Part shown: positions 6,838-63,274 of the stretch, one piece after another
Position numbering within the stretch: position 1 is the first letter of the stretch
How the letters are laid out: each line of letters starts with the position of its first letter
From: an uncultured Verrucomicrobiae bacterium
GTDB lineage: Bacteria; Verrucomicrobiota; Verrucomicrobiia; Limisphaerales; Palsa-1400
Direction of reading: 5' to 3'
NCBI GenBank assembly: GCA_963825315.1
Contig: CAWGST010000001.1
Span: forward strand, 270,556 to 334,555
DNA: 64,000 bases
The notes under the pieces: model-generated
What the model was told of the DNA's origin: nothing
The model's input: only the letters and a program-made list of their open reading frames with translations
Databases searched by the model: none
Translations under genes and position numbers: made by a program

Positions 6838-7529
6838 TGGACCAACGACATCACGTGACAGCGGAAGCGGTCGGATCCAGTCAACGCCGAATGACGGTCT
6901 GTTATGCCGCCGGGTGGCATTTTTTCCGGTTTTATTTCTCGGTTTATCATCGCTTCCGGGTGTTTAACGCTGAGCGAGTGCCGTTGCAAGGGCCGGTCAT
7001 CCTGGCGTCCAATCACGCCAGTTATATCGATCCGCCCCTGGTGGGCGCGGGCGTGAGACGGCAGATCAACTATCTGGCGCGTGATTCCATTTTTCGCGTG
7101 CCGGTGTTGGCCTCCATCCTGCGCTCGTGGGAAGTTGTGCCGGTGGACCGGGACGGCGGCACCGGGCGGGGCCTCAAGGCGATACTGGAGCGATTGGGCC
7201 GCGGCGGGGCGATCATTTTGTTCCCGGAAGGAACGCGCTCGCGGCACGGGGAATTGAACCCGGCGCGCTCCGGGGTGGGTTTGGCGGTGATCAAATCCAC
7301 CGCGCCGGTGGTGCCGGCGAGGGTTTTTGGAACGTACGCGGCCTATGGCGCGCAAATGCTCGTGCCGCGGCCCCGTCCGCTGGCTGTCAAGTATGGCCGT
7401 CCGCTGTATTTTGAGGCGTTGCGGGCGGAGGCGCAAAGCTGCTCCAAACAGCGCTTGAAGGAGATTTACCAACAGGTGGCGGATGAGGTCATGGCAGCGA
7501 TTGCCGGCCTCGAACCGAAAGAAGATTGA
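6837..7529 (+). CDS. plsC: 1-acyl-sn-glycerol-3-phosphate acyltransferase
   Basis: Carries acyltransferase motifs NHASYIDPP and FPEGTRS. The likely ATG at 6837 overlaps the TAA of the GH15 gene (TAATG). ORF-track start is 6801. Confidence 0.8.
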   Translation: MDQRHHVTAEAVGSSQRRMTVCYAAGWHFFRFYFSVYHRFRVFNAERVPLQGPVILASNHASYIDPPLVGAGVRRQINYLARDSIFRVPVLASILRSWEVVPVDRDGGTGRGLKAILERLGRGGAIILFPEGTRSRHGELNPARSGVGLAVIKSTAPVVPARVFGTYAAYGAQMLVPRPRPLAVKYGRPLYFEALRAEAQSCSKQRLKEIYQQVADEVMAAIAGLEPKED

Positions 7530-8291
7530 TGATGAAAGCTGTCATTTTGGCGGCAGGCAAGGGAACGCGCATGGGCGGGTTGACCAGCGACCTGCCAAAA
7601 CCGATGCTGCGCGCGCAGGGCAAACCGATCCTGGAACATATTCTGGAAGGTTTGATGGAGGCCGGGGTGCGGGATTTTTTTATCGTCACCGGCTTTCGCG
7701 CCGAAGTGGTTGAAGGCCATTTCGGCGATGGAAAAAAATGGGGCGCCCGGATCAATTACGGCCGGCAGAGGGTGCAGGACGGGACGGGCAAAGCGCCTGA
7801 AGTGGCAAAGGAATTCGTCGGAAGCGGCGATTTTGTCCTGACTTACGGAGATATTCTGGTCCGGCCGCAAACTTACCAGGACATGCTGCGGCGCTATGCG
7901 GAGGGAACTTTTTCCGGAACTGGTCACCTGCACGGGAAGCGAGGATGTGACCCAAGGCGGACTCCTCCTTTTCGACAAGGCCTTCCGCCTGCGCCGCCTG
8001 ATTGAAAAGCCCGGCCCGGCCCAACTGGACCAACTCCGCCGCGAAGGCGACCTGCCGCCGGGAAGCACCGCCTGGTATAACGCGGGCATCTACATTTTCA
8101 AGCCGTCATTGTTCGACTTTACAGCCCGGCTGCAAAAGTCGCCGCGCGGCGAGTACGAATTGACCGACGCGATCAGCGCGATGCTGGCGGCGGGCCATCG
8201 TTTGGCGGGATTGGAAATCCAGGGGCGCTGGGTGGATGTGCGCGACCCGCAAGTGCTGGCGGCGCTGGAAAAAGAAGCCAGTTCATCATAA
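7529..8291 (+). pseudogene. Sugar-phosphate nucleotidyltransferase, reading frame broken near 7905-7925
   Basis: The N-terminal ORF (7526..8005) carries KAVILAAGKGTRMGGLTSDLPKPML. The conserved continuation ELVTCTGSEDVTQGGLLLFD...WYNAGIYIFKPSLFDF...EYELTDAI lies in the +1 frame (ORF 7896..8291). The tail of the first frame (GHLHGKRGCDPRRTPP...) looks non-coding. Confidence 0.7.
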
Positions 8292-8397
8292 GTTGAATCG
8301 GCACGGATGTCAGGCGCGAAAGCAGATATGTTCGGGCCATGCTTGTTCGGGGCGGCAGCAATTCCGGTCTTGCGATTGGGCCGCTTCTGTTTGCACC

Positions 8398-11300
8398 ATG
8401 TCCCCAATGAGCCGCGCCATGCCAGCGATAGTCAATTCCGTTTCCTTGTCTTTGAGGATCGGCCGCCTTGGTCTGGCTTTGGCTCTTTGGTTTGCCGGCC
8501 AGCCTCCAAGCGTCGCGCTGGCCGCTCTGCCAAGATACTTTGTCCGTAATTTGGTGGTGGAGGACGGCTTGCCGGAGGACTCCGTGTCCTCCACCCTGCA
8601 GACTGACGACGGCTATCTATGGGTTGGCACTTATAGCGGCCTGGCCAGATTTGATGGCGTGCGCTTCACCGTGTTTGACAGCGGCAACACCCCGGAACTG
8701 GCCAGCAGCCGCATCTCCAGTCTCTTTCAGGACAAGCAGGGAACTCTGTGGATCGGACACGAGGGCGGGGAATTGACCCGCTATGACAAGAACGGACATT
8801 TCCACCCGGAGGCGGTGCGCGCCTCGTGGAAGGGACGGAAGATTTTCGGCATTGCCGCTGATCAGGGCGGGGACATCTGGCTGGTCAATGATCTGGGAGT
8901 GCTGGGGCGTGTGAAGGATGGAGCGGTTGCCTCCCCTGTGGCTGGCCGACGGGAAAAACTGGTTGGATTTGCGGGTGCTTTTGACGGATCGGTCTGGGTC
9001 ACACGTGACGGCTATGCCTCCATTCTGCGCCGCGGCGTCTTGACTTCGCAGCAACTCGACGGGCCGCCCGAGGAATCGTATGTCCAGGGGATTTGCCCAA
9101 GCCGCGACGGCAATCTGTGGGTGGCCAGCAAAAACCTTGTGCGCAAATGGAATGGGACAAGGTGGGTTGACGGCGGAATGCCAGCGCCTTGGAAGGATTC
9201 GCCGCTGACCGCGTTCATTGAAACTCAGACCGGGTTGCTGGCGGTGGGGACTCAGGACAAGGGACTTTATTTGATCAGTCCCGAGCATGATACGCTGAAC
9301 TTCAGCCGCACCAATGGCTTGCTCAATGATTGGATACGGAGTTTATGGTCCGACCGGGAAGGCAATTTATGGGTGGCAACCGGGGGCGGAGGCGTGGCCA
9401 TCCTCTGCGCGAGCTGTGTGGCGGCGGTTAATCCACCTGATCAGTGGCAGGGACGCTCAGTATTATCGGTTTGCTCAGGCCGTGATGGCGGGGTATGGAT
9501 CGGCACCGAGGGCGCAGGTTTGTATCAGTTCAAGGACGGGCAATGGTCACATTTTGGCACGAACGACGGATTGATGAATTTGTTTGTCTGGTCCGTGGCG
9601 GAGGATGCGGACAGGCATCTTTGGGCAGGCACTTGGGGCGCCGGCTTGTTCGTCCAGAACAATGGCCTCATCAAACGCGCGCCGGGACTTGGGGGGATCA
9701 CCGTGCCGATGCCGGCACTCTTGTGCATCCGGGGAGGCGGCTTATGGGTGGGGACGGAGGCGGGGTTGCTGCGCTACGATGGAACGAATGGCGCCTGGCT
9801 TGGACAGAACCGGGAATCTATCCGAACGGACGTGCGCGCCATCGTGGAAGACAGCCAGGGGACGGTTTGGTTCGGCATGTTGGGTGGAGGACTGGCCCGC
9901 TTAAGGGATGGGGAATTGCAACATTTTGGCAAGGCCGATGGTCTCTCCAGTGATTTCGTCCAGTGTCTCCATCTCGATGCCGAAGGCGCGCTCTGGATTG
10001 GAACCTTTGGCGGCGGTCTGAACCGATTGAAAAACGGCAAAATCACAGCCATTACCGTGCGCCAGGGATTGCCTAATAATATCATTGGTTGCATTATGGA
10101 CGACGGGAGTGGCAGCTATTGGATGAGTTCCCACGCCGGCATTATCCGCGCGGCCAGGCAGGAATTGGATCTATGCGCGGACGGCAGAATCAATTTGGTT
10201 CATTGCTCCTCCTTTGGCAAAAGCGACGGACTGCCAACACTGGAGTGTTCCACCGGGTTCCAGCCGGCGGGATGCAAAACACGCGACGGGCGGCTCTGGT
10301 TTCCGACCGGCAAAGGCCTGGTCGCCGTGGATCCGAAGGACATCCACGTCAACAGCCGTCCCCCGCCAGTCGTGGTTGAGGAGGTGCGAGTGGATGGCCG
10401 CGCCTTCGCCACCCGCGCCACCACAGAGGAACCATTACGGATTGCGCCGGGCCAGCACCGGATTGAAATTGACTACACGGCCTTGAGTTTTGTCGCCCCG
10501 GAAAAAGTGCGTTTCCAATATCAACTGTCAGGATTGGAGACCAATTGGGAGGAAGCCGGAACCAGGCGCGGCGCCGATTTCACCTTCCTGCCACCGGGCA
10601 GTTACATTTTTCACGTCATTGCCTGCAACAACGACGGGATCTGGAACACCAGGGGAGCTGAGTTCGCCTTCCAGATCCTCCCGCACTTCTGGCAAACCTC
10701 CTGGTTTCTAGTCTTGTCAGCAGCGGCGATCATGGCCGGCGCCGCGCCGGAGTCCACCTGGACGCCCGCCGTCGCCTGCGCCGCAGGCTGGAACTGCTGG
10801 AACGACAGCGGGCCGTCGAACGCGAGCGCTCCCGCATCGCCCGCGACATCCACGACGATCTCGGCGCCACTCTGACCCGCATCTCACTCTTGAGCGACGC
10901 CATCCCGACCGAGCTGGTCAGCCCGCCCCAGGCGGGTGAGGCCCTGAGCCGGATTTTTGCCACCAGCCGCCAATTGGTGCAGGCCCTGGACGAGATCGTC
11001 TGGGCTGTCAATCCCAAATTTGACACCCTGGAAAGCCTGGCCAGCTACCTCGGGAATTTCGCGCAGGATTTGTTGGAGACGGCCGGGATCCGCTGCCGCT
11101 TGGACATGCCGGTGCAGCTACCCGTCCGCCCTTTGACGACCGAAGTGCGGCACGTCATCTTCCTGGCGTTCAAGGAAGCATTGAACAACGTGCTCAAACA
11201 CGCCGCCGCCACCGAGGTCACGGCATCGCTTGCCCTTGAAGCCGACGCGCTTGTTCTCTCGGTGGAAGACAACGGCAAGGGCTTCACTCCCCCGGCTGCG

Positions 11301-11468
11301 GCCGCCCGTCCGCCTTGCACGACCGCCCGCCCCTCCGGCGGTTGTGGTTTGACCAACATGCGGCAGCGACTGGCGGAAATTGGCGGCCGGTGCGAAATCC
11401 AAAGCGTCCCGGGTAGCGGTACGAAAGTGCAGTTCATCGTGCCGTTCAATGCCAAATCCAGCGCGTGA
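8398..11468 (+). pseudogene. Propeller/Y_Y_Y-type sensor histidine kinase (HisKA_3 + HATPase), reading frame broken near 10740-10750
   Basis: ORF 8236..10875 has a signal/TM segment, then many YLWVGT/LWIGT propeller repeats, then a Y_Y_Y-like region and the TM segment WFLVLSAAAIMAGAA. The H-box RSRIARDIHDDLGATLTRISLL and the ATPase domain (ORF 10890..11468) are in another frame that is open back through 10689. The ATG at 8398 (MSPMSRAM...) is the likely start. Confidence 0.75.
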
Positions 11469-11519
11469 CCGCCCTCCACTCCCCATTGCCTCCTTGTCCT
11501 CAGTATTGATGACGATACA

Positions 11520-12224
11520 ATGAACGATCTTTGCACTATCATCAGCAAGAATGTGAGTATTGCCGTGTCAATTGTCGATGACGACGAACCCGCGCGCCAT
11601 ATCCTGGCAGGATGGATCAACCGCGCCAAAGGATTCCATTGCGTGGGCGAGCATGGCTCCGCGGAAAGCGCGCTGGAGCATCTCTGCCAGGAAAAGCCCG
11701 AAGTGGTCCTGATGGACATCAACCTCCCCAGACTCAGCGGCATCGAGTGTGTGCGCCAATTGAAGCTGCAATTACCCGGCACCCAGTTCGTCATGCTCAC
11801 CGTCTATGAGGACGCCGACCATATCTTCAATGCCTTGTCCGCGGGCGCCAGCGGTTATCTGCTCAAACGCACTTCCCGCGAACATTTGCTCGCCGCGCTT
11901 TTGGATGTTCACGCCGGCGGTTCTCCCATGACCAGCAGCATCGCCAGGAAAATCGTGCAATCCTTTCGCCAAACGCCGTCCAGCATCTCCGCGGCGCCCG
12001 AACTCTCCCAGCGCGAGCAGGAGGTGTTGGGGCTGTTGGCCCGCGGCTATGCCGGCAAGGAGATTGCCAGCGCCTTGGGCATCAGCGTCACGACCGTCAG
12101 CACCTATGTCCGTCGCATCTATGAGAAGCTGCATGTCCATTCGCGCGCCCAGGCCGTGGCCACCTACGCCCAAATCAACCTCGATGAGAGCCGCTGGCAC
12201 AGGCGTTCTTTAAGGCCTGGTTGA
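11520..12224 (+). CDS. NarL/LuxR-family two-component response regulator
   Basis: Receiver domain (VDDDEP...VVLMDINLP...) plus a C-terminal LuxR HTH (LSQREQEVLGLLARGYAGKEIASALGISVTTVSTYVRRIYEKLHV). It lies directly downstream of the kinase. Confidence 0.85.
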   Translation: MNDLCTIISKNVSIAVSIVDDDEPARHILAGWINRAKGFHCVGEHGSAESALEHLCQEKPEVVLMDINLPRLSGIECVRQLKLQLPGTQFVMLTVYEDADHIFNALSAGASGYLLKRTSREHLLAALLDVHAGGSPMTSSIARKIVQSFRQTPSSISAAPELSQREQEVLGLLARGYAGKEIASALGISVTTVSTYVRRIYEKLHVHSRAQAVATYAQINLDESRWHRRSLRPG

Positions 12225-12577
12225 GGACAGACCGGCGCTCGGATTGCCAACGCGGAGGAACGGATGGCGCGGTTGACCGCCTTCTTATCCCCGCAGAACG
12301 CCAGGTAGCCCCCCGCCATCGCCAGCTTCCATTCCCACCCTCCCTCCCTTTGTCCTCTGTTTAGAGGACTATACAGTCTTCCATTTCTGTTTAATAATAC
12401 CATCAATGAAGCTCATGTCCATCGTCGTCAAAGTCGGCCGCGAAAACGCCCTGTCCGGTCACGTCCGGCAGCCAGCGGGACGTGTCAACCGCAACCAACA
12501 ACAGACTCCAGCCAGACAAAAACAATTGACAAAACACCTCTCGGTCTAAAAAGCGAAACTATCACCCCAAAATTCTT

Positions 12578-15500
12578 ATGAAAAAAAACATACTAATGAT
12601 ACTCGGAATGCTCGGCCTGGGCGTTGCAGCCGCGCACGCGCAAATTATAATTGACTCTTGGGAATCCACAGCCGATATAGCCCAGTGGACGATCCTTGAA
12701 CCGAGCGCCTGGACCAGTTTGGGATTGAGCACCACAGGAGTGACCGCCGGCTCCTACAGTTGGGGATTGAGCGCGTCCGCCGTTGATTACAACCCCGCGT
12801 TGCAAGGACCAGCCAGCACGGCCCTGACCACGGCGATGCTCAATGCCGCTTCCGTCAGTTTGGATTTAGATTTGGCAGGTGACCATTTTAGTTGGGGCAT
12901 CCAGATCGACCTCGAGATCACCCAGCCGGGTGGCGCCAACGGTGGTAATCCGATTGACTTGACCTCTGGCGACTACCTGGGTGATTATAGCGGCCTCGGC
13001 GAAGCCACCATCACATGGCCAGTTCCGCCGTCCACCATAGCCGCATTGAGCGTGCATCCAACTCTGCCCACCTATTTCACTTTTAGGATTGGCGGCGGCG
13101 GTGATGGGATTATGTATATAGACAATCTCCGGGTCACGCCCATAGGGTTGCTTTCCTCTTGGGAAAGCACAGCCGAGATAGCCTCGTGGACGATCCTTGA
13201 ACCAACCGCCTGGACCAGTTTGGGATTGAGCACCAACGGAGTGACCTCCGGCTCCTACAGTTGGGGATTGAGCGCGTCCGCCGTCGATTACAACCCCGCG
13301 TTGCAAGGACCATCCAGCACGGCCCTGACCGCAGCGATAGCCAATTCCTCTGCGGTCAGTTTGGATTTGGATTTGGCAGGTGACCATTTTAGTTGGGGCA
13401 TCCAGATTGACCTCGAGATCACCCAGCCGGGTGGCGCGAACGGTGGTAATCCGATTGACTTTACCTCTGGCGACTACCTGGGTGATTATAGCGGCCTCGG
13501 CGAAGCCACCATCACATGGCCGGTTCCGCAATCCGCCAGGACTGCTTTGGACGCCTATCCATCTCTGCCCTCCTATTTGACTTTTAGGATTGGCGGCGGC
13601 GGTGATGGGATTATGTATATAGACAACCTTCGGGCGACCGTGCTGCCTCCCGCTCCCGCCCAGCTCGCGGTTCGTGAACTATGGGACGACATCGCCGCTG
13701 AACAAAATCCCACCGCGGCGAGCATCACCGATAATACTTCGTCTCTTGGCTTTGTGTCTGCCTCCCCATGGGTTCCCAACCCGGCCGAAAGTGGCCTTAA
13801 CGGAACCGTCAACAACACCGGATTGATGGAGTTTCGCCCAGGTTTTTACTTTGAGGAACTGAGCCTCGACATGGGGTTGCCCGGATCTCTTGACGGGACG
13901 GGTGGATGCATGGTGCAGGAAAATGGCTGGGGCGGCTCCTATTTCCCGGCAACTGGCGGGGGTAGTTTTTGGACCTCCGGGGACTGGATGACAAGACCCC
14001 TTGCTCCCAACAACTACATCAATTTTAAAGCTGTGGGAGAATATTGGTTCTCGATGAGTGTGCAAGAATTTTCGTCGGATTCACAATACGTTATATTCCC
14101 CTCTTCGGGAGGCTGTGGCTTCGGTTTTTCCGACGGCCCCACCACCAACGCCGACTTTGTCGCGGTTGGGCTGACGCCCCTCCATCTTTACCTCGGCCCG
14201 GGTAAGACAAACGCCAGTTCATCCGTTTATGTTTCCACCGGCACCTTGGGCCAGCCCGGCGATCCCTACTCGGTGAGCAACTACAATCCGACCAACGATC
14301 CGGCTTATCTCGGGCTATATACCGGTGGGATATATACGAATGCGCCTTTTTCGGAGACCAACTTCACCGGTGGGCCGTACTACGTCAGCGCTTTCGGCGC
14401 CGCCAGCCAGGGCGACGCCTTTGATGCCACTGATAATGGCATGGTGGTGCTGGGACACCTCAAAACTTGCGCGGACGGCGTGCCCGGCAGCGGCAACGCC
14501 ACCTTGGACGCCAAATTCTATTATTACAACGCTCCAAATGGCTATAACAACGCCATGGACCTTACAACCAATAACATCCAGTGGGACGTAACCGGCTATG
14601 CGTTTAATTTCGGCGGCACCATGACAGAAATGCTGCTGTTTGAGAATGGCCAGTTTTCGACCTATGTTGACGGCTTCCGTGCCGGCACCAGCTTTACCAA
14701 TGTCGTGGGCATTGATGCCGGACGCATTGGGGCTTCGCCATTGGCCAATACTTATGCTGGTTATCCCATCATTCTGACCAACTACACGGTTGAAGCCAAT
14801 CCCAATTCCTTTTACCCGGCGCTGGGAGGAGGTTACGGAACGCTGACCTACCAATGGTACAAAAATGGCACGTCGCCCGCCAATGCGATCTCTGGCGCCC
14901 AATCATCAGTTTACAACGCCATCACCAGCGCCCAGTTGGGCGACGCCGGCACCTATTACTGCATAGCGGGAGATTATTCCGGGCAATGGGGAACAGTCAC
15001 CAACTCCATTGTCATCTCTGTCACAAATCTGGCCCCGCCCACCGTGGCCAGCGTGCAGATGTTCCATGACAGCACCACCTTCCAAGTTACCTTCAGCGAG
15101 CCTAATCTTCTCGGTGTAGGGACGAATACTCATTATGTGTTCAACCACGGAGTCGTCGTCACCAATGTCAACGTCGTTGGAGGCGCCACCTCGACCTTGG
15201 TCCAACTCCAGACCACCACCCTGCCGGTGGGAACCAAGATAACATTGACCATCAGCGACGTAACCAATGCGGTGGGAGGCACCCTGAACGGCGCCGTTGA
15301 TACAACGAATCTAACCTTCTGGACGGATCTCATCCAGACCGGCGTTGCCAACTGGCAAGGCTGGGTGACTGCTACTTCTGAGGGCTGCGGGTACTATTTC
15401 GGCACATGGCTCCCCGCCAACCCTTTGCCCCCCATCCTCCAGACCATCCAAGTCACCAGTTGGAGTGGTGTTAGCAGTGGCGTCACCATCGTGGGCGGCG

Positions 15501-16366: not shown

Positions 16367-16386
16367 CGGGCTTGGCCGTTCTGAAA

Positions 16387-16418
16387 GCGTCCGAGGGCAA
16401 ATCCCTCGGGCGCTTTCC
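16387..16418 (+). terminator. Terminator-like hairpin after the large secreted protein gene
   Basis: agcgtccgaggg (16387-16398), loop caaat, then ccctcgggcgct (16404-16415), giving a 12-bp stem with one G-U pair. It is followed by ttccc, so the T-tail is weak. Confidence 0.4.
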
Positions 16419-16470
16419 CGGCAAAAGCCTCTGGTAATCATGTAATCGTTTTAGCGAATTGAAGATTTTT

Positions 16471-17373: not shown

Positions 17374-17482
17374 TTTGTTGCTTGCCCTTGTTTTTCGGCC
17401 AGCCGAACCGCCGGCAATTGTCGGCGGTGGGTATGAATTGACCGTGCCGGAATCAGAGACGCGTCAGCACGTCTGCCTCGGC

Positions 17483-17967: not shown

Positions 17968-18009
17968 CGTCGCATGTCCTGATTTTGAAGCCAGGGGCTG
18001 ATGTGAGAG

Positions 18010-18252
18010 TCAATCCTCCTGGCGCGACCAGAAATAAATGCCCGCAATGATGCCAATGGCGGCCAGACTCATCCAGAAAGCGGATGTGATCAGCCAGGAA
18101 ACGGCAATGAGAGCAACGCCGCCCACAAGAGGGGGTCCCGAACGCTGCTTCTTTCCGTAAAGCCAGAAACCGCCCCCGACGGCGCTCCAGAATAGGGAGG
18201 CAAGCAGGTAGCTGGCATCGAGTTTAAACGGGAGGATGTGATCCAGGTCCAT
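18010..18252 (-). CDS. Small integral membrane protein (hypothetical)
   Basis: Part of ORF 18010..18312. The internal ATG at 18252 (MDLDHILPF...) avoids overlap with recG and with the hexamer array. Two to three hydrophobic segments. Confidence 0.45.
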   Translation of the reverse strand: MDLDHILPFKLDASYLLASLFWSAVGGGFWLYGKKQRSGPPLVGGVALIAVSWLITSAFWMSLAAIGIIAGIYFWSRQED

Positions 18253-18276: not shown

Positions 18277-18287
18277 GAAAACGCCAA

Positions 18288-52426: not shown

Positions 52427-52431
52427 AACGG

Positions 52432-53907: not shown

Positions 53908-54298
53908 ATAAGTTGCGCCAGGGGGTCGCTGTCTAATCGTTTAATGGGCCTACGTAATACGACGCAATCACGCTCCGGCACGCTTCTTCCGATGGCTGAC
54001 GGGTCCGCGGCGCCAGCGCCTTGCCGCCCACGCTCGCCATTTGCCTCTTTCTCCCTGGAACCGGCCCCCGCTCTCCCCTGGCCGCCTCCCCGGTTCTCCG
54101 CTGTTTCATCACGTCCCTCCCCGTTGCGGAGCCGCATGGCAATGGACCGGCCGGCTTGGGTGCTGTCAATAATGGCGTGCTCATGGCCTACCCGTAGCTT
54201 TTCCTTTGCCGCCGTGCTCTCCACATATTGCGAAAAACACCGTCTTTTTTGGCGGCCATATTTTGTCCAAGCAAGCGCATATAAAGACCATGACCAGG

Positions 54299-54414
54299 AA
54301 ATGACTAAGGTCCAAGCACGAATGACCAATCAATGACGAAGCAGCAATGACGAAGTTTCCAAGTTTCGTCATTCGGTCATTTGGGCATTGATGGGTCATT
54401 AGGATTTCGTCATT
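54299..54414. repeat. Palindromic cluster: AATGAC x4 (54300-54351) facing GTCATT x4 (54368-54414)
   Basis: AATGAC at 54300, 54321, 54332 and 54346. GTCATT at 54368, 54376, 54395 and 54409. The core aatgacgaa...ttcgtcatt is centred near 54360. Confidence 0.85.
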
Positions 54415-54562
54415 GGACATTTCCCCCCCCCATGCTCCCAAAGTGGAGTTGACCAGCCGGAGCCTTCAGCGTATATATCAGCGCAACAAGTGCAAAGCAT
54501 CCGCCAGGAACCGGCAGGACGCCGATCCGGCGCGGAATGACCGTTTTGCCAGAAAGCTTTCT

Positions 54563-55837
54563 ATGTCAAACATGGATCAAACCGAGGTTTTGGTAACCGG
54601 AGCGGGCCCGGTGGGAATGCTGACCGCCCTGCTTCTGACGCAGAACGGGATTAAAACGCGGATCATTGACCAGGAGTCCCGCACGGCCGGACACAGTTAT
54701 TCCTGCGCGCTTCATCCCCGATCCATCCAACTGCTGCACCAGGCGGGCATCGCCGCCGACGCCATCGAATTTGGCCGCCGCATTGACTCCGTGGGCTTTT
54801 ATGAAGGAAGCGAGCGGCGCGCCGAAGTAAAGCTTTCCGAACTCCCCGCCGAATTTCCCTTCGCGCTGGTGTTGGAGCAGAGCGCCCTGGAAAATTTGCT
54901 CGAGCAAAGGCTTCGGCAGGCCGAGGTCAGAATCAACTGGGACCACAGGCTGGCCAATTTGGAAATGGATGACCGGGGAGCCGCGGCGACCATCGAGAAA
55001 TTAGGCATGACAGGGAAAGGCTATGGCGTGCCGGGCCTCGAATCAGGGGTGAAAGATAATTTGCAGGCGCGGGCGGAGTTTATCGTCGGCGCTGACGGAG
55101 CAAACTCGCTGGTGCGGACGCGGCTGGGCATTCCATTCGAGCGCGCGGGCGCCCCTCAACACTTTGCCGTATATGAAGTCGAAGCCGGCGGCGTGTGCGG
55201 CCACGAAGCCAGGGTTGTCCTGGACGACGCCACGGCCAATGTCCTCTGGCCCTTGTCGGATACACGATGCCGATGGAGCCTTCAACTCAATCCGGATGAA
55301 GAGAGCGGCGATTTTCCAGGGAAAGAGCGGGACCGGATGGTGGTAGTCGAGCGGCCCGGTGAGCAAGACGGCCTGCACCAGTTGCGCCGGTTGTTGAACG
55401 GCCGCGCGCCTTGGTTCCAGAGCCAGATCCAGGAGATCGTCTGGACCGCCGATGTGCAATTTGAACCCCGGCTGGCCCGCCAATTCGGCCAAAACCTCTG
55501 CTGGCTGGCCGGCGACGCCGCGCACCAGACCGGACCCGTCGGCATGCAGAGCATGAACATCGGGTTCCGGGAGGCGGCGGACTTGGTGGACGTGCTCACG
55601 CAGATCCTGCGCAAAGGCGCATCCAGAGATTTGCTGAAACGTTATGATCGCGCGCATTGGGGCGAGTGGTCGCAGTTATTGGGCCTCAAGACGGGAGCGA
55701 CATCCACGGACAAAGCCGCGGAGTGGGCGCGGCGGCGGGCCGCCCGGATTGTGGGCAGCATTCCGGCGTCGGGCGCTGATCTAACCTCTCTGCTCAAACA
55801 ACTGGGAATTGATTTGGTTTTTGCCTCCCCATCCTAA
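54563..55837 (+). CDS. FAD-dependent monooxygenase (UbiH/aromatic-ring hydroxylase-like)
   Basis: The in-frame ATG at 54563 gives MSNMDQTEVLVTGAGPVGMLTALLL (GxGxxG). AGDAAHQTGPVG is the FAD-binding motif. The ORF-track start at 54413 runs through the repeat cluster. Confidence 0.75.
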   Translation: MSNMDQTEVLVTGAGPVGMLTALLLTQNGIKTRIIDQESRTAGHSYSCALHPRSIQLLHQAGIAADAIEFGRRIDSVGFYEGSERRAEVKLSELPAEFPFALVLEQSALENLLEQRLRQAEVRINWDHRLANLEMDDRGAAATIEKLGMTGKGYGVPGLESGVKDNLQARAEFIVGADGANSLVRTRLGIPFERAGAPQHFAVYEVEAGGVCGHEARVVLDDATANVLWPLSDTRCRWSLQLNPDEESGDFPGKERDRMVVVERPGEQDGLHQLRRLLNGRAPWFQSQIQEIVWTADVQFEPRLARQFGQNLCWLAGDAAHQTGPVGMQSMNIGFREAADLVDVLTQILRKGASRDLLKRYDRAHWGEWSQLLGLKTGATSTDKAAEWARRRAARIVGSIPASGADLTSLLKQLGIDLVFASPS

Positions 55838-55901
55838 TCCTAATCTTAATCCTAATCCTAATCTTCTTCAATTCGGATTAAGATTAAAATTAAGATTAAG
55901 A
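55834..55901. repeat. Inverted hexamer arrays: (CTAATC/TTAATC) x5 then (GATTAA/AATTAA) x4, able to form a long AT-rich hairpin
   Basis: The arrays at 55834-55865 and 55876-55901 are separated by cttcaattcg. They lie between convergent genes. The left array begins inside the TAA stop (55835-55837) and the right array ends 5 nt before the minus-strand stop (55906-55908). Confidence 0.85.
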
Positions 55902-55905
55902 GCAG

Positions 55906-56634
55906 TTACCTGGCGGATATAGCCGATCCCGGCGCGTTGTGCTTTAACGCGAGATCACCCACGATTGCGGCAGCGTGGGGCAGTGTCACCCAGTCCGTAT
56001 TGATGACCAAATGATACTGTAGTGGATCGTCAATGTCTTTGCCGAAGTACCGTTTCAGATAGCGGCGCCGGCCTCCATCTTCCCGCTCGATGCGCGCCAG
56101 CGCATCCTTCTCATTCAACTTGTCGAAGACCTGCATGTGGGCGACGCACCGTTCCACCGAACCGACCAGGCGCACGTGCAAGGCCCACGGCAACCGCGCG
56201 GTAATGATATTGGCGCCGCGTCCCAGAATAATCACATTGCCCAATTCGGCCAGGCGCAAAATGGTTTCCGATGTCTGCCGCACCAATGTCTCCGTTGGCG
56301 GATGCAGGCTGAACAAATCCTCGATTATATCGTGCATTTGCGAAACCCGGTCCTCCGGCATGAAAGCCGCCAGACGGGAGGGCAAGTGATGGTCCTGCAA
56401 AACCGCTTCCATCAGAGTGCGGTCAAAAATCGTCCACGGTACTGCGCTATGGGGAAGGTGGGACTGGAGCCAGGCCGCCAATGCTTCGGCAAAAACATGG
56501 GCGCCACATCCCGATTGCCGGGAAACGGTGACACATTTGACAAAGCCAGCGTCGCCGACGCGAGATGGTTTTGGCGCCTGCAATTGACAATTGATGAAGG
56601 AAAAACAGCGATCAAGGCCAAAGTTCGTGTTCAT
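55906..56634 (-). CDS. Cytidylate-kinase-like family protein (P-loop NTPase-like)
   Basis: 242 aa. VTVSRQSGCGAH is a degenerate P-loop, and ILGRGANII...HVRLVGSVERCVAHM...RRRYLKRYFGKDIDDPLQYHLVINTD is typical of this family as I recall it. Confidence 0.65.
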   Translation of the reverse strand: MNTNFGLDRCFSFINCQLQAPKPSRVGDAGFVKCVTVSRQSGCGAHVFAEALAAWLQSHLPHSAVPWTIFDRTLMEAVLQDHHLPSRLAAFMPEDRVSQMHDIIEDLFSLHPPTETLVRQTSETILRLAELGNVIILGRGANIITARLPWALHVRLVGSVERCVAHMQVFDKLNEKDALARIEREDGGRRRYLKRYFGKDIDDPLQYHLVINTDWVTLPHAAAIVGDLALKHNAPGSAISAR

Positions 56635-57212
56635 AAGTCACCTCGAGATTCCGGTTCTGATGAGAACGCCCATTTGTATGCCGGATGTTTGTTCTCATAT
56701 AGTAATTTACTCGAAGCCCGCTGAAAAACAATCCCGGATTTTGGAAAAGTGCAGGACAGAATTTTTCGCGGGGGGGATGGTTCCAGTGGTTGCAGAGCGA
56801 CGGCGGAAATTAGCCAGACACGGAGTGTCTGGCGAACGCCGCGCAATGATTTCGTCCTGCCGCCGTCGCGCCGTAGCGGCGCTTTGGCGCGCCGCGAAGG
56901 CGGAAAGGGACGAAGGGCCTTTCGCCAGACGCCTGGCGGGCGGGGCGATAAATTTGGCCTTTTTTCGCCCAAAACCGCCCAAAATCCAAAGAATTATCCG
57001 CTTTTCCAAAAACTTATCCGTTGCGCAAACCGCGCCATTCGTGATGAAATAGAACGTATGTTAACCAACACGCCAAGCCAGTTGGCGCGAGCAGTTTGCC
57101 GCGGGCGAGTCCTGCGGCGCATGGGGAGATTGCGCGTGTTGCCCCCCGCCTCAGACAAACAGCAGTCAATATGCATCGAAACCAACCATTAGATAATTAA
57201 GGAGATCATATT

Positions 57213-58253
57213 ATGAAGAAGCTCAACACCATGATCGAAGACGGACTCTTAACCCCCCTGTCGGACCCCGTTCCCCGTGGCCGCCAAAGGCAATTCCCTA
57301 TCAGCGTTATTGTCGCGTGCTGCGCCGCGCTGTTCCTCCGGCCGGCCGCCTCTCTCGCCATCGGGGACAGCATGTCCCGAAGTGGTCCGACGGTAGCCAG
57401 CATTGTCTTTACAGCAACGCCTGTTAACCATGGAGGAGTTTCCGCAAGCGGCGCATTCACTCAAATTTACGCCGCTTCGGAGGTGAACACGACAATTGAT
57501 GATAACGACGCGGTGCCGCCAGCAGCGCCCTACGTTGCGGCCGGCTCCTACGCAACAACGCAGACGAGTGTCACTGGCGTCAAGTTCATCCCGGAATCCA
57601 AGGTAGCGGCTAACATCACTATTATGAACGCTGGACCGCCGGTTAAATTAGGCTGGAACACGGTGGCCGCTGCCTATGGAATTGACGTAACAGGACCAAC
57701 CGGGGGAACTCGCGAAACGGCATATGCGCATTGGCATGTGCTCGACCCGTTGTCCGTTTCGGGTCTGGCGGCAGGGGACACCATCGGCGTGGCTTTTTCA
57801 CCGGCCAGCGGCATGGGCATGATCTTCCCTGATGCGAACCCGAATGCCAGTTACTCATCCACCTTCTCGGCCTCTGCGCAGACTGACGTCCCCGGCCTCT
57901 CATCACTCTTTTCGCTGTCAATCCAAATGAGCAGCGCCACACCAGGTAACGTGGGGGTCAGCTTCACCAGCAACCCCCTCCTCGGCCTGAACGATGCCGC
58001 GATCACATCCGAGCTGGTCAGTGGATTCCAATATGACAGTACGACCGGAGACTACTCGTTCGATCCCACCGGCCAGGAAATAGACGCCACCATGACAGTC
58101 CCCGCGGGCGTCTCCGTAGTCAACGTCACCTCCGGCATGGGGGACGAACTTGACGCCTCCGTCGTCCCCGAACCCTCCACCGTTGCCCTGCTCGGCATCG
58201 GTGCAGTCAGTCTGCTGGCCCGCGAGTGGCGGCGGCGAACGGCAAAATCGTAA
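57213..58253 (+). CDS. PEP-CTERM sorting-domain secreted protein
   Basis: The C-terminus VVPEPSTVALLGIGAVSLLAREWRRRTAKS is PEP, then a TM segment, then a basic tail. AAGGAG lies upstream of the ATG. The N-terminus has a hydrophobic signal-like segment. Confidence 0.8.
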   Translation: MKKLNTMIEDGLLTPLSDPVPRGRQRQFPISVIVACCAALFLRPAASLAIGDSMSRSGPTVASIVFTATPVNHGGVSASGAFTQIYAASEVNTTIDDNDAVPPAAPYVAAGSYATTQTSVTGVKFIPESKVAANITIMNAGPPVKLGWNTVAAAYGIDVTGPTGGTRETAYAHWHVLDPLSVSGLAAGDTIGVAFSPASGMGMIFPDANPNASYSSTFSASAQTDVPGLSSLFSLSIQMSSATPGNVGVSFTSNPLLGLNDAAITSELVSGFQYDSTTGDYSFDPTGQEIDATMTVPAGVSVVNVTSGMGDELDASVVPEPSTVALLGIGAVSLLAREWRRRTAKS

Positions 58254-58331
58254 AGCGGTCTAAAGTAGTCGATTCTAACATAAACTGGCCGGTTCTAACA
58301 ATTGACAATCCTTGTCGGCCTGGTTGGTTTT

Positions 58332-59399
58332 CTAAAGGGGTCGTGTGCTGGAATTGGCCGCTTGAAAGTCCTCTTTCTCCCTTTCCCCCATAAATTCGCG
58401 AATCAATTTTTCGAGGAAATCCAGCCACAGCGGATGCTCATTCAAGCAAGGAACCAGGTGAAAGTCCGTGCCACCGGCGTCCAGGAAGATTTTCCGGCCG
58501 CGCATCCCCATTTCTTCCAGGGTTTCCAGGCAGTCCGACACGAAGGAGGGGCAGATGACCAGCAGCTTCCTGGTCCCGGCCCTGGCCAATCCTTCAATGA
58601 CCCAATCCGTATAGGGTTTGAGCCACGGCTCGCGTCCCAATCGGGATTGAAAGGCGACCGAATACTTGGATTTTGGAATCGAGGCCATCCGCACAAAGGC
58701 TTCCACCGTTTTGAAACATTGCGCGCGATAGCAGGTGCTCAGGACAGGACTGTCGCCCTCGCAGCAATCCCGCGACCTCAGGCAATGGCGGCCCGTCGGA
58801 TCGGCCTTGCGCAAATGTCTCTCGGGTATGCCGTGAAAACTGAACAGCAAATGGTCGTAGTCTCGATTGAGATACTCGGACGCTGTTGCCGTCATGGCCC
58901 GGATGTAATCCGGATGATCGTAGTACGGCGGCACGACCGTGAGCGACAGGCGCGGCGCGACTTCAGCCATGACTTCCCGCACCCGCTCGACGGCCGTTTC
59001 ATAACTGGACATGGCGTAGTGCGGAAAAAGCGGGATGAGCAGCACCTCGTGGATGCCTTCGTCGCGCAACTTGCCGATGGCATCCGGGATGGACGGATTG
59101 CGATAACGCATCGCCAGTTCCACCCTCACGCTGGCGCGCTCTTGCAGCGCCTTTCGCACCTTCCGGCTGGTCGCCACCAGGGGCGAGCCTTCGGGCGTCC
59201 AGATTTTCTCGTAGGCCTCAGCCGATAGCGCCGGGCGCCTGGGCAAAATGGTGAGATGAACGATGCACCAGCGCACGGGATACGGCGCATCCAGAACACG
59301 GCCATCCATGAGAAATTCACCCAGATAGGTCCGCACATCTTCGACCGACGCGGAATCAGGCGACCCCAGATTCACCAGAAGAACAGCTTTCGTGCTCAC
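58332..59399 (-). CDS. hemH: Ferrochelatase
   Basis: 355 aa. LLVNLGSPDS...VRTYLGEFLMDGRVLD and C-terminal motifs are typical of HemH. The GTG start overlaps the stop of the hemY C-terminal frame (GTGA). Confidence 0.9.
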   Translation of the reverse strand: MSTKAVLLVNLGSPDSASVEDVRTYLGEFLMDGRVLDAPYPVRWCIVHLTILPRRPALSAEAYEKIWTPEGSPLVATSRKVRKALQERASVRVELAMRYRNPSIPDAIGKLRDEGIHEVLLIPLFPHYAMSSYETAVERVREVMAEVAPRLSLTVVPPYYDHPDYIRAMTATASEYLNRDYDHLLFSFHGIPERHLRKADPTGRHCLRSRDCCEGDSPVLSTCYRAQCFKTVEAFVRMASIPKSKYSVAFQSRLGREPWLKPYTDWVIEGLARAGTRKLLVICPSFVSDCLETLEEMGMRGRKIFLDAGGTDFHLVPCLNEHPLWLDFLEKLIREFMGEREKEDFQAANSSTRPL

Positions 59400-60806
59400 G
59401 CGGAAACGGGGTGTTGCAGGGTGTTGCGGCGACCTTGCTCCAAGCTCAAAAATGTCTCGATTCTCCCCGCCACCTTGTGGCCGGAGACAATGGAATCACC
59501 CAGCGAAACTCCGTCGCGGGCGTGTCCGGCCACAAACAGGCCCGGCGCCTTCGCTTCCATGTCATTCATCAACTGCGCGGAATTTTCCGAAGCCCAGATT
59601 GTATTGTGGAATGGCCTGGCGATAAACGGCGACGTGCTGAAATGTTGGCCGGCCCCGGACTCCCAATATCGTTCCCAAGTCTTTGACTGCGATTTCTGTC
59701 AACACTTCCGGCGTGCCCAGGGGCAGGAGCGGTTGGCGCGCGCCGCCGATGTAACAGGTAATGGCCACTTCGCCTTCCGGGGCGCGATTGGGAAAGAGCG
59801 ACGACGAGAAGAGCGCGCCCAGGATGTTAAACCCTTCCTTTTCCGGAATCAGCATGCCAAATCCATCCAGCGGATGCGCCACATCGGCGCGGCGAAAGCC
59901 CAGCACGACCGAGGCCACGGGCGGATAATAGACTTCGGCCAACGACGAAACCTCGAGCGCTGGAGTGGTGATGATCTCCAGGGAAGCCATTTTGTGGCTC
60001 GGCAGGGCGAGGAGAACCGCGCCGCACTCCACCGGGCCGCCGTGTTCCAATTCGATCCACCAGCCCTCCTCCATGCGCCGCAAACAACGAATGGGCGCGG
60101 CGGTTTGAATGTCTCCCTCCAGACGGGATTGCAGCGCATCAATCAGCACCTGCAAGCCGTCATCGAACGAAAACTTCTTCGCGTCCTGTTTGGAAACCTC
60201 CCCGCTGCGTTTGCGCGCGCGCGCCCCCAGAATTTGCCCCAAAAAGAGCGAACGATAGCGTTGCTCCAGCGCGTGGAGTTTCGGAAAGGCCTGCGACACG
60301 GAAAGCAGTTGCGGCCTGCCGGCGTAAATCCCGGCCACCAAGGGATCAATGGCGTAGTCAAGAAATTCCTGGCCGAGCCGCCGCTGCACGAATTGGGCAA
60401 CCGACTCTTCCAAACCGTCCGGCGCCCTCCCGATGAACGGCTCGGCCAAAACGCGCAGCTTGGCCGGGAGCGAAAACAGGGGCGTCGTCAGAAAACCTCC
60501 CGCGGAATTTGGAATGACCACCGGCTTTTTGTTCCGCACCACGTAGCGCTTTTCCGCCGATGCATTGGAATAAACCCGCCGCGATTCCAACCCCAACTCG
60601 CGCACCACATCGGATATGACCGGCGATGTCTCCAGGATGCTGTTGGGACCAAATTCGGCCAGATACCCGTCGCGGCGCGCGGATTGGATCACGCCGCCCA
60701 CGCGATCGGCGGCTTCAAACAGGCGCACGGGGATGTCGCGCTGCTTGAGACAGAAGGCGGTGGTCAGCCCGGTAATGCCGCCTCCGACGATGGCAACAGG
60801 TTTCAT
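59396..60806 (-). pseudogene. hemY: Protoporphyrinogen/coproporphyrinogen oxidase (HemY family), reading frame broken near 59565-59580
   Basis: ORF 59562..60806 has VAIVGGGITGLT (FAD fold) and ends prematurely at ...IPQYNLGFGKFRAVDE*. The conserved C-terminus (LMNDMEAKAPGLFVAGHARDGVSLGDSIVSGHKVAGRI...) is in another frame and terminates at 59396. At 57-58 codons, that piece falls below the ORF-track length cut-off. Confidence 0.75.
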
Positions 60807-62176
60807 ATCGTTTTGGAAAAGCGTCGTTCCTTGGCCGCCGGAAGATACCGATCAAAGCGCATGGCAATGTTGCGGATGAAAAGCCGGCCCGCGTCGCTGA
60901 CCACCAGGCCGTTGGCCTCGCGCCGCAACAGGCCGTCCTTTTCAAGGTCCGTCATGGAATCCAGTTCGGCCTTAAAATAGCGGGCAAAGTCCATCCCCAG
61001 GTCCTGTGAAAGTCCGGCGTAGTCCAGACTCATGTCGCACATCAGCCGCATGATCGTATGGCGGCGAATCTTGTCGTCCCCGCTCAAAACGTAGCCTTTG
61101 GCAAACGGCTCCCCGCCGGATTCCAGGGCCTCGTAGTATCCGGCCAAATCCTTGATGTTTTGCCAATAGACCCCGTCGGCCTGCGAAATGGCCGACATCC
61201 CGAAACCATAAATGTCCGCCCCGCCTTTGGTGCTGTATCCCTGGAAATTTCGCTGCAATGTTTTCTGGCGTTGCGCCACCGCCAGTTCATCCGTCGGCCG
61301 CGCGAAGTGATCCATGCCGATGTAGGTGTAGCGGTCGTTTTGTGTCAGCTTCTCGATGACGAGTTTTAAAATGCTCAGCTTGGTTTCCGCGCTGGGCAAG
61401 GCCTGCTCCAGTATCTTTTGCGCCGGCTTCATCCACGGCACGTGCGCATAACTGAAAACCGCCAGCCGGTCGGGCCCAAGCTTTATGATTTCGTCCAGTG
61501 TTTCCTCGAAGGATTCGACCGTCTGGTAAGGCAAACCGTATATCAAATCCAGGTTGATGGATTGAAAACCCGCGGCCCGCGCCCACTCCATGGCTTGCTC
61601 GGTTTGCTCGCGCGGCTGTATCCGATGCATGGCCGTTTGCACCGTCAGATTGAAATCCTGCACGCCAATCGAAGCCCGGTTGAATCCCACCTCCCGCAAG
61701 GCGGCGAAGTGATCGCGCGTCAGCCGGCGCGGATCAATCTCCACTCCCGCTTCCATCCCGGGCCCCAGATTGAAATGCTTGCGGATGGACTGGCCCAGAA
61801 CGCGAATTTCATCGGGCGACAGAAACGTCGGCGTGCCGCCGCCCCAATGCAATTGCACCACCTGGCGCTGCGGATTGATGCGGGCGCTCATCCGTTCCAT
61901 TTCCCTGTCCAGGTATTGCAGGTAGATCGCTCCTTTTTCCCGTTGCGTCGTGATGACGGTCGTGCAGCCGCAATACCAGCAGAGCGACTCGCAAAACGGA
62001 ATGTGGAAATAGAGGGAGAGGCCGCGCCCGGACGACTGCGCCTGGGAAATCTTCGCCGCCACCTCCGGCCAGGTCACTTGATCGGTAAACTGCGGGGCGG
62101 GTGGATAGGAGGTGTAACGCGGCCCCGGCACGTTGTACTTTTCAATCAACTCGAGATCAACGTTCAGTTCGCTCAT
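60803..62176 (-). CDS. hemN: Oxygen-independent coproporphyrinogen III oxidase (radical SAM)
   Basis: 457 aa. LSLYFHIPFCESLCWYCGC radical-SAM motif and PRYTSYPP N-terminus. It has ATGA overlaps with both neighbours. Confidence 0.9.
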   Translation of the reverse strand: MSELNVDLELIEKYNVPGPRYTSYPPAPQFTDQVTWPEVAAKISQAQSSGRGLSLYFHIPFCESLCWYCGCTTVITTQREKGAIYLQYLDREMERMSARINPQRQVVQLHWGGGTPTFLSPDEIRVLGQSIRKHFNLGPGMEAGVEIDPRRLTRDHFAALREVGFNRASIGVQDFNLTVQTAMHRIQPREQTEQAMEWARAAGFQSINLDLIYGLPYQTVESFEETLDEIIKLGPDRLAVFSYAHVPWMKPAQKILEQALPSAETKLSILKLVIEKLTQNDRYTYIGMDHFARPTDELAVAQRQKTLQRNFQGYSTKGGADIYGFGMSAISQADGVYWQNIKDLAGYYEALESGGEPFAKGYVLSGDDKIRRHTIMRLMCDMSLDYAGLSQDLGMDFARYFKAELDSMTDLEKDGLLRREANGLVVSDAGRLFIRNIAMRFDRYLPAAKERRFSKTI

Positions 62177-63274
62177 ACGAAGTTTTGCACGGTGCTGACC
62201 AGTGCTTCGAGGTTTTCCATTTTGGCGTCGGGCGGCACGCCGTGGCCGAGATTGAATATGTATCCGTCCCGACCGCGCATCAATTCGAGCAGGCGGCTGG
62301 TTTGCGCCGCCACCAGCCGCGGTTCCGCGCTGGCCAGCAGTTCGGGAGCCAGATTGCCCTGCATGGCGACGCGCGCGGGCAGTTGTTGCTTCGCCTCGGC
62401 CAGGTCAATTTCGTGATCTATTCCAATGGCTTGCGCCCCAGTCTGGATCAGTGATTTCCAACTGCGGGCGCCTTTGGAATAAACAATCACCGGAACCTGT
62501 CCATTGAGGGCGGAAACAATCGTTCGCATCCACTGGCCCGAAGCCTCCTCGAAATCCTCCAACGGCAACAGCCCGCCCAGGCTGTCAAATATCTGGATCG
62601 CATCCACGCCGGCCGTGATTTGCATCTGTAGAAATTCGATCACCGCCAGCGTCAATTCCTCTGACAGCGAATCAAACAGCGCCCGGTCGCGTCGAAACAG
62701 TTGCAAAGCTCTGGTCTGGGCGCGCGCGCTGCCGCCTTCGAGCATGAAGTTGGCCAGCGTCCAGGGTGAACCGGCAAAGCCCAGCAACGCCGTGCCGGGG
62801 CCCAGCTCCGATTTGACACACCGGATTGCCCCGGCCACGTATTGCAGGCGATCAGCTGATTGCCCGGGTATTGAGCCGTCGAACATCATTGCGGTCCCGC
62901 ACCACGTAATCCATTTCGACCCCTCCACCGTCACGGAAGTTGAAGCCCTGGCCCAACGCTTCCGGCACCACAAGAATGTCACTAAAAAGAATGGCGGCGT
63001 CGAAATGAAACCGCCGCACCGGTTGCAACGTCACTTCCGCGGCCAGTTCCGGGATTTGGATCAGTTGACGGAAGGAGTATTTCTCCTTGAGCGCGCGGTA
63101 CTCTGGAAGGCAACGCCCGGCCTGGCGCATCAGCCAGACTGGCGGACGGTCCACCGGCGAACATTCCAAGGCGCGCAGCATCCGTTGCCGGCGCGTGACT
63201 TCCGTCCCCGTCGGTTCCAAAGGCGCAACCCCACACGCCTTCCACTTTGTTTCATCCGCCAGTAAATCCTGCAT
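62173..63274 (-). pseudogene. hemE: Uroporphyrinogen decarboxylase, reading frame broken near 62861-62870
   Basis: ORF 62852..63274 has [21 protein letters not shown]...[14 protein letters not shown] and ends ...[12 protein letters not shown]. The continuation [15 protein letters not shown]...LLGFAGSPWTLANFMLEG is in another frame (ORF 62173..62982). The junction lies at the acccgggca run. The true start may be the internal ATG at 63181. Confidence 0.8.

Follow-up and report, generated by a model that had tools for sequence, protein, structure and literature searches.

Genes in the window and assemblies compared

The window, i.e., the whole 64-kb stretch of DNA analyzed here, originated from an uncultured bacterium of the Verrucomicrobiae (Limisphaerales-like) and is part of a contig of 3.04 Mb. 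It carries genes for a sugar nucleotidyltransferase, a sensor kinase, a GH35 beta-galactosidase, the menaquinone enzyme MqnE and the heme enzymes HemY and HemE, as well as an IS701-family transposase, the remnant of a TPR gene, and a ParE-like gene next to an antitoxin gene. In a preliminary description, nine breaks of reading frames were listed among these genes (approximately one lesion per 7–8 kb) and ascribed to indel errors of the assembly.

Independent assemblies of the same strain (99.85–100% DNA identity), obtained from samples different from that of the window, spanned approximately 57.6 of the 64 kb, and approximately 4 kb (38362–42437) lay outside this comparison. A contig of GCA_052915825.1 was 99.975% identical to window positions 1–20202, with three substitutions and two indels in total; both indels coincided with claimed breaks. 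Between 24639 and 38018 (99.94% identity) the single indel was at 31558, and between 42431 and 63909 (99.85%) there were three indels, at 48140, 59575, and 62855. A Logan contig showed 100% identity across 3.3 kb. For the assemblies of the window and of GCA_052915825.1 we infer the sequencing platform, and the label "nanopore/Flye" as used here is based on the names and lengths of the contigs and on the error spectrum; a literature search found no paper naming the accessions JBLFKL, GCA_052915825, ERZ25039540, or SRR31840466. Synteny searches based on hemN yielded 80 species-level loci, which spanned the hem operon alone because synteny stops at hemH.

Single-base breaks in six genes

Six of the nine claimed breaks were single-base indels private to the window (7918, 10743, 31558, 48140, 59575, and 62855). 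Each of the five insertions was missing from all other assemblies covering the site (two to three per site, from different archives, DNA alignment), and these agreed with one another against the window. The density of breaks was approximately 1 per 10 kb (six private indels in approximately 57.6 kb of comparable sequence) rather than one per 7–8 kb; approximately 6 of 50 genes were affected.

The NTP transferase (sugar nucleotidyltransferase) gene (7529–8291, plus strand) contained an extra A at 7918 (CCGG[A]ACTGG), within the interval in which a break had been noticed (7905–7925), and was split into pieces of 158 and 131 aa. The Pfam NTP_transferase domain was correspondingly distributed over two frames (profile positions 1–128 in one, 138–235 in the next). 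The extra A was missing in L086, L087, and L089, and the gene without it coded for 253 aa, as called in L086.

The sensor kinase gene (Reg_prop/Y_Y_Y; 8407–11468, plus strand) lacked a G between 10743 and 10744 (GCCGGCGCC[G]GCGCCGG), so that the half with HisKA_3 and HATPase_c was out of frame, as described for positions 10740–10750. This G was kept in L086, which coded for an intact protein of 1016 aa (P0124), and orthologues were approximately 1000–1020 aa long with both domains present. Three long-read assemblies gave three different sequences at this site, and the frame was open in the GCA_052915825.1 contig only. The missing G was contradicted by GCA_052915825.1 alone because the two other long-read contigs (L087 and L089) were each garbled differently at the same repeat.

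In the GH35 beta-galactosidase gene (31426–33862, plus strand), an extra A at 31558 (GAGGCC[A]GGCTT) split the frame at the position originally reported, and the large ORF of the window began only at profile position 77. L097 and L095 did not have this base. The corrected gene coded for 811 aa, and nearly all of the 120 homologues listed were 808–816 aa long.

The mqnE frame (47034–48401 as read, plus strand) had been described as lacking a stop near its conserved end (approximately 48132). We found an extra T at 48140 (CGCC[T]GGCC), close to the 3′ end, by which the frame overran the true stop and overlapped mqnA (start at 48221). The product was 455 aa long in the window vs. 367–389 aa for those listed members of its 90% cluster that are near full length; three shorter listed entries were on contigs of 1.6–3 kb. 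The T was missing in L091 and L090, and the corrected length of 389 aa was that called in L091. The tail was not conserved at the distance of a further homologous locus (L017), and the point was decided by the same-strain contig L091.

Both heme genes were split on the minus strand, at the junctions first noticed or only a few bases away (59565–59580 and 62861–62870). In hemY (protoporphyrinogen oxidase; 59399–60806), the extra base at 59575 (plus strand, AACT[G]CGCGG) was missing in L091, L090, L092, and six other species; the corrected length of 469 aa equaled the L091 call, and identity to the nearest species was 88% after the break and 91% before it. In hemE (uroporphyrinogen decarboxylase; 62173–63274), the extra G at 62855 (plus strand, GATCA[G]CTGAT) distributed the Pfam URO-D domain over two frames (profile positions 2–110 and 116–345). 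It was missing in L091 and L090, and also in L001, L002, and L004, the three relatives with DNA aligned across the site. By tblastn, a search that the preliminary description had proposed, hemE was a single ORF in six of six relatives. The corrected protein was 366 aa long; its part after the break was 93% identical to that of the nearest species, and its part before the break 90%.

Changing these six bases resulted in proteins of 253, 1016, 811, 389, 469, and 366 aa, lengths that equaled the gene calls in the GCA_052915825.1 contigs and fitted those of orthologues in other species. None of the six genes was broken in GCA_052915825.1. No added divergence was seen 3′ of the breaks, in segments too short for formal dN/dS. 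The six breaks were found neither in independent assemblies of the strain nor in relatives, as a genuine pseudogene of the lineage would be, and the search for orthologues that naturally end or split at the same positions spoke against a real lesion at every one of the six sites.

Lesions shared by independent assemblies and the IS701 transposase

Two of the remaining claims concerned sequence that was also present in other assemblies. The ParE-like gene (45290–45592, plus strand), a toxin pseudogene downstream of an Unstab_antitox antitoxin gene (45078–45293), has an in-frame TAA at 45350–45352 (codon 21). The region of this stop was identical in GCA_052915825.1 and contig_9731. With the stop replaced, the ORF matched Pfam ParE_toxin (PF05016) across the TAA over profile positions 7–89 of 89 (E = 0.0023, 18.9 bits, cut-off 23). 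It thus resembles ParE at a score below the gathering threshold, at which family membership is not established.

The TPR remnant (homology at 17468–17979, plus strand) is truncated at its 5′ end and contains a GT insertion at 17541..17542 (GGCG[GT]GTGCGC), in the last approximately 500 nt of the remnant. A second +1 shift near 17710 merges the end of the TPR sequence with a small membrane ORF (17542–17967). The site was identical among the window, L086, L087, and L089, and in a relative (L100), which lacks the GT, the TPR ORF was unbroken for at least 349 aa. The 141-aa ORF at this locus had no homologue outside the strain except P0337. The break near 17541 is present as claimed, but it consists of two nucleotides instead of one and affects a remnant instead of an otherwise intact conserved gene. 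Because the TAA and the GT insertion are common to independent assemblies, both are to be regarded as real; the TAA was correctly noticed, and neither lesion fits the reading as an assembly error. These two lesions are ordinary features unrelated to the assembly errors.

The claimed break in the tail of the IS701-family transposase (23412–24680, plus strand, 422 aa) did not hold. The product matched NCBIfam NF033540 over profile positions 1–361 of 363 (339.6 bits, cut-off 150). The A8 run (24585–24592), at which the frame was said to be lost, was unchanged in two other contigs, and the frame read through it contains the tail KKNFW.DVG...SLL that is kept in homologues (39–68% identity); in seven of these the alignment reached the last residues. 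The identical 422-aa protein was found on 12 contigs, one of them a Logan assembly. A version with seven A residues scored only 3 bits higher, on one secondary model of NCBIfam, and was contradicted by the tails of the homologues. The transposase is intact.

Private indels and substitutions

When only columns covered by at least three assemblies were counted, the window had 0.87 private indels per 10 kb. The corresponding rates were 1.5 in ERZ25039526, 2.1 in ERZ25039509, 5.4 in ERZ25039540 contig_9731, and 21.9 in ERZ25039473, and zero in the Logan contig and in GCA_052915825.1, excepting for the latter the kinase site, where it alone was open. Each of the four ENA contigs named in Flye style (contig_N) had private indels of its own elsewhere (1.5–22 per 10 kb), and other genes were split in these contigs (GH15, RecG, mqnE, hemN, and sdh).

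The window also showed 18 private substitutions across 3007..63227, at which all other covering assemblies disagreed with it. Twelve of the 18 were G>A or its complement (3007, 4361, 14780, 23447 [complement], 33764, 36073, 36127, 43477, 50400, 50804 [complement], 61625, and 63227). Seven G>A substitutions were in the context [GC]CGA[CT], and four affected the same base of GGC[G]ACC, which occurs 19 times in the window (P about 2e-11). Two of the private changes were Asp>Asn replacements in a 1120-aa phosphorylase, at one invariant and one near-invariant residue. In GCA_052915825.1, private substitutions numbered 16, and there were no real indels.

The six indels were mostly insertions, and the insertions were at non-repetitive positions. 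Four of the six were in a CCGG context vs. a background of 6.4% (P about 2e-4, with only six events). The long-read sister contigs showed no CCGG enrichment of indels (2 of 31 and 4 of 41), and the association in the window may be specific to it or an effect of small numbers. The 18 substitutions are probably base-calling artefacts that share their origin with the indels, and the private differences as a whole would fit a nanopore-like signature.

Origin of the breaks

The comparison of assemblies leads us to consider it very likely that the six single-base breaks arose as consensus errors in an error-prone metagenome assembly from long reads and not as mutations of the organism. A sequencing artefact is preferred over genome decay, since the genes are intact in independent assemblies of this strain. 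The initial attribution to assembly indels was right for these six breaks, which are private and whose correction restores the genes; it failed for the ParE-like and TPR lesions, which are real, and for the transposase, which has no lesion.

The same differences could in principle have been very recent mutations in one clone, as in a mutator lineage or by mutagenesis at methylated motifs, with loss of heme and menaquinone synthesis among other functions. They are private to one assembly with its own sample, different samples would allow clone-specific mutations, the G>A changes recur at a CpG-containing motif as deamination of 5-methylcytosine would produce, and the strain does have two real lesions (ParE and the TPR remnant). 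We nevertheless regard this origin as very unlikely. Six indels to 18 substitutions, with all indels in coding sequence, is unlike what selection leaves, and the 16 substitutions of GCA_052915825.1 came with no real indel. Moreover, hemE, hemY, and mqnE would be broken in a genome in which succinate dehydrogenase and the remaining steps of both pathways are encoded, two Asp>Asn changes would have hit an invariant and a near-invariant residue, and sequence downstream of the breaks has not diverged further. The contig_N sister contigs, with far higher private indel rates elsewhere, demonstrate that this class of artefact exists. Slightly less probable still is the extended form of the idea, in which methylated CCGG and GGCGACC would be mutational hotspots from which both the indels and the G>A changes at motifs arose, and a free-living soil Verrucomicrobium would be starting to lose heme and menaquinone synthesis.

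The reverse case, a correct window and errors or frame corrections in the other assemblies at the six sites, finds some support in the visible unreliability of other long-read assemblies at the kinase site. It is highly improbable because, at each of the five insertions, two to three assemblies from separate archives agree against the window; the version without the extra bases gives open frames that fit orthologues of other species (65–92% identity), and the absence of the hemY and hemE insertions extends to the other species aligned there. Programmed recoding, by ribosomal frameshifting or transcriptional slippage, has only a superficial resemblance in its favor (short runs such as T5 and A8 near some junctions), and we give it a negligible probability. 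At all six sites, which we inspected for slippery sequences and for conservation of the break, orthologues and same-strain copies were uninterrupted. The junctions had no common slippery motif, the insertions were at non-repetitive positions, and the reading frame continues unbroken across the only A8 run.

Under the preferred explanation of consensus error, DNA of the strain would have been read with nanopore-type technology, a platform presumed from the features given above, and assembled without short-read correction. This would have left approximately 1 indel per 10 kb, biased toward insertions and gathered at CCGG-containing sequence, and G>A miscalls at the recurrent GGCGACC and the related [GC]CGA[CT]. 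Both types of motif (CCGG and GGCGACC) are probably sites of DNA methylation, which would account for the motif bias, and gene callers would then have split or lengthened the affected genes.

Comparison with known systems

G>A miscalls linked to motifs are a described nanopore artefact (PMC11610573; bioRxiv 10.64898/2026.01.14.699587), and a nanopore-only metagenome pipeline of the Flye/Medaka type has also been described (PMC12313526). As in MAGs from such pipelines, single-base indels split conserved genes in the window, the error rate varies between assemblies of one organism, and G>A miscalls are found at a recurrent short motif. Unlike the classic nanopore deletions in homopolymers, the indels of the window are mostly insertions at non-homopolymer sites. 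Compared with nanopore-only MAGs, the platform is here presumed rather than documented, and CCGG and GGCGACC are candidate methylation motifs.

The window shares with genomes of the Mycobacterium leprae type many frameshifted genes, housekeeping and biosynthetic genes included, at one per several kilobases. Genomes undergoing reductive evolution (M. leprae and recently host-restricted symbionts) are rich in pseudogenes, with lesions common to independent isolates, downstream decay, and many nonsense codons and deletions. In contrast, the six lesions described here are private to one assembly, their flanks match intact copies at 99.85–99.98% identity, and the sequence downstream has not decayed.

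The ParE-like ORF is similar to inactivated toxins of type II toxin–antitoxin systems (ParE/RelE superfamily) in that it directly follows an Unstab_antitox gene and has one premature stop in all assemblies. It differs in that its ParE_toxin match is below the cut-off (18.9 < 23 bits) and in that no intact orthologue was retrieved to show the original codon.

Consequences for the biology of the organism

Taken at face value, the breaks would describe an organism seemingly without heme and menaquinone synthesis and apparently in decay. Judged from the sequence comparisons, intact hemE, hemY, mqnE, GH35 beta-galactosidase, sensor kinase, and nucleotidyltransferase genes are almost certainly present in this bacterium; they should be handled as such, and the assembly should be polished before pathways or pseudogenes are analyzed. 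Extrapolated to the 3.04-Mb contig, approximately 1 per 10 kb would, if it holds throughout, mean some 300 artificially split genes. The non-random positions of the errors (CCGG and GGCGACC) provide testable candidate methylation motifs of an uncultured bacterium.

Results

Frame breaks and same-strain assemblies

Three-frame translations and Pfam coordinates confirmed that family sequence runs on in an adjacent frame at the breaks. The NTP_transferase profile was matched over positions 1-128 in 7526-8005 and 138-235 in 7896-8291, the Reg_prop/Y_Y_Y sensor occupied 8236-10875 with HATPase_c in another frame, the first profile position matched by the GH35 ORF was 77, the Amino_oxidase match of hemY ended at 383 of 443, and the URO-D profile was parted in hemE (2-110 and 116-345). 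Both hemY and hemE were single ORFs in six other species and mapped onto two window frames; DNA alignment gave a one-base surplus in the window relative to all six species for hemY and to the three species that aligned for hemE. Sensor kinase orthologues were approximately 1000-1020 aa long, with HisKA_3 and HATPase_c; the window's product, P0001, had 822 aa. A search with the kinase fragment matched P0001 at 100% identity, and its 90% cluster, which led to the same-strain contigs, included P0124, an intact protein of 1016 aa that otherwise matched the window fragments exactly, as well as variously truncated kinases (825, 501, 245, and 164 aa) from different assemblies.

Same-strain DNA came from seven other assemblies: GCA_052915825.1 (three contigs, L086, L091, and L097), GCA_052915745.1, one Logan assembly made from run SRR31840466, and four ENA assemblies with contig_N-style contig names. 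Counting alignment columns represented in three or more assemblies, these and the window covered approximately 57.6 kb. Relative to GCA_052915825.1, the window showed three substitutions and two indels in 1-20202 (a surplus A at 7918 and a G lacking at 10743), seven substitutions and one indel in 24639-38018 (a surplus A at 31558), and 30 substitutions and three indels in 42431-63909 (a surplus T at 48140, a surplus base at 59575, and a surplus G at 62855). All six indels coincided exactly with the single-base breaks that the preliminary description had placed in the nucleotidyltransferase, kinase, GH35, mqnE, hemY, and hemE genes, and the compared spans held no further private window indel. 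The five insertions were missing from every other covering assembly. At the kinase site, the repeat GCCGGCGCCGGCGCC read differently in each of three long-read assemblies, with an open frame in the GCA version only; because it was garbled in three ways, the fault at this GC-rich repeat (10730-10750) is systematic and not due to chance. Reverting the six bases resulted in ORFs of 253, 1016, 811, 389, 469, and 366 aa, the lengths of the GCA contig gene calls and also typical of orthologues. The ORFs in 38362-42437 (folC-like, sdhC, sdhA), a stretch with no same-strain counterpart, looked intact.

Private indels and substitutions

The window had 0.87 private indels per 10 kb (1.04 with the kinase site included), compared with 1.5 in ERZ25039526, 2.1 in ERZ25039509, 5.4 in ERZ25039540 contig_9731, and 21.9 in ERZ25039473. 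The rate was 0 in GCA_052915745.1, in the Logan contig and, once the kinase site was credited to it, in GCA_052915825.1. The contig_N assemblies broke other genes (GH15, RecG, mqnE in a different place, hemN, and sdh); therefore, such errors demonstrably arise in this data type, of which the window is probably a better-covered example.

Among the 18 window-private substitutions, 12 were G>A and eight were non-synonymous. Seven of the G>A changes lay within [GC]CGA[CT]: four hit one same base of GGCGACC (GGC[G]ACC; 3007, 23447, 33764, and 36127), a motif with only 19 sites in the window (P about 2e-11), and further recurrent-motif sites were 14780, 36073, and 63227. In the 1120-aa phosphorylase, private Asp>Asn changes affected one invariant and one near-invariant Asp. 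This substitution pattern is unnatural. CCGG was found at four of the six indels against a background of 6.4% (P about 2e-4, from six events only), an association not seen in sister contigs.

Loci with other explanations

Three further breaks had been proposed. The TAA at codon 21 of the ParE-like ORF (45290-45592), downstream of an Unstab_antitox antitoxin gene, was present, and the sequence was identical in the window, GCA_052915825.1, and contig_9731; because of this identity it is a real, if unremarkable, nonsense mutation in a putative toxin gene and not an assembly error. With the stop replaced, the ORF matched the whole Pfam ParE_toxin profile with a score under the cut-off. In 44398-47037, a toxin-antitoxin cassette of the antitoxin gene, the dead ParE-like gene, and a 57-aa ORF lies between flavoprotein (UbiX-like) and UbiA-family prenyltransferase genes; at a Limisphaera sp. 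locus (L068), one 553-aa open frame matches both flanks of the cassette.

The TPR break near 17541 also exists, although not as a single-nucleotide error in an intact gene. The sequence agreed in all four assemblies of the strain. The only homologue of the 141-aa ORF found beyond the strain was a 79-aa protein, whose contig (L100; approximately 88% DNA identity) contained a TPR ORF that ran without a break for at least 349 aa. Relative to L100, the window carried two inserted bases, GT, at 17541-17542 and another +1 near 17710, and homology started only at 17468. The locus is a real, older, 5′-truncated gene remnant. In 17468-17967 the remnant continues, with no change of frame, into an ORF for a small membrane protein, and gene callers take the resulting 141-aa hybrid as a normal gene.

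The break postulated at the A8 run of the IS701 transposase (23412-24680) was ruled out: the NCBIfam IS701 model was matched end to end, and seven homologues (39-68% identity) conserve the tail as encoded in the frame that passes unbroken through the run. By these comparisons the gene has no lesion. The identical 422-aa transposase occurred on 12 contigs and near-identical variants on others, the element being multi-copy in the population. Contig L097 terminates within this gene, at 24639.

Genomic setting

The G+C content of the window was 56-61%, except for a stretch of approximately 50% at 30-38 kb. In this low-GC block (~29300-38000) lie genes for an MFS transporter, a GH35 beta-galactosidase, and the 1120-aa GH94-like phosphorylase; GH35 homologues named from Bacteroidota were 73-83% identical. 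L096, a contig of another assembly, was collinear with the window up to 29313 and entirely different beyond. Unless L096 is chimeric, the block resembles a sugar-utilisation island that was acquired horizontally and varies among strains. A 1262-aa ORF (12578-16366) had no Pfam match and contains a tandem repeat (12655-13133 and 13156-13634, each approximately 480 bp, ~91% identical). Substitutions between assemblies were patchy (4250-6540, 18660-20720, and 58660-63230), with long identical stretches elsewhere, which suggests sub-strains living side by side, or recombination; the sister long-read contigs have their own private indels concentrated in the same patches. Database records assign the window's proteins to a single contig of 3,041,123 bp (NCBI and ENA). 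With hemN as probe (60803-62176, minus strand), the nearest species-level genomes were uncultured Verrucomicrobiae/Limisphaerales MAGs, the best being MFD01112.bin.2.19 (92% protein identity).

Discussion

The preliminary description favoured assembly indel errors as the explanation of the breaks, and for the six single-base breaks this was borne out: they are private to the window, and reverting them restores orthologue-length ORFs. Very recent genome-wide pseudogenisation, its notable alternative, is not supported: its lesions should be common to independent assemblies, and those assemblies do not carry the six. Programmed frameshifting should show breaks conserved across orthologues, and these are not. 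Because both expectations fail, the error reading is supported. That one clone truly carries these changes is very improbable.

The pattern match supports residual long-read consensus errors as the origin of the six breaks. G>A miscalls tied to motifs at methylated sites are a recorded nanopore artefact (PMC11610573; bioRxiv 10.64898/2026.01.14.699587). The nearest relatives of the window belong to a long-read MAG catalogue produced with Flye and one Medaka round without short reads (PMC12313526); we infer a Flye/Medaka-type pipeline for the window, and likewise the platforms. If the errors are methylation-linked miscalls, GGTCGCC and CCGG would be candidate methylation motifs of this uncultured bacterium.
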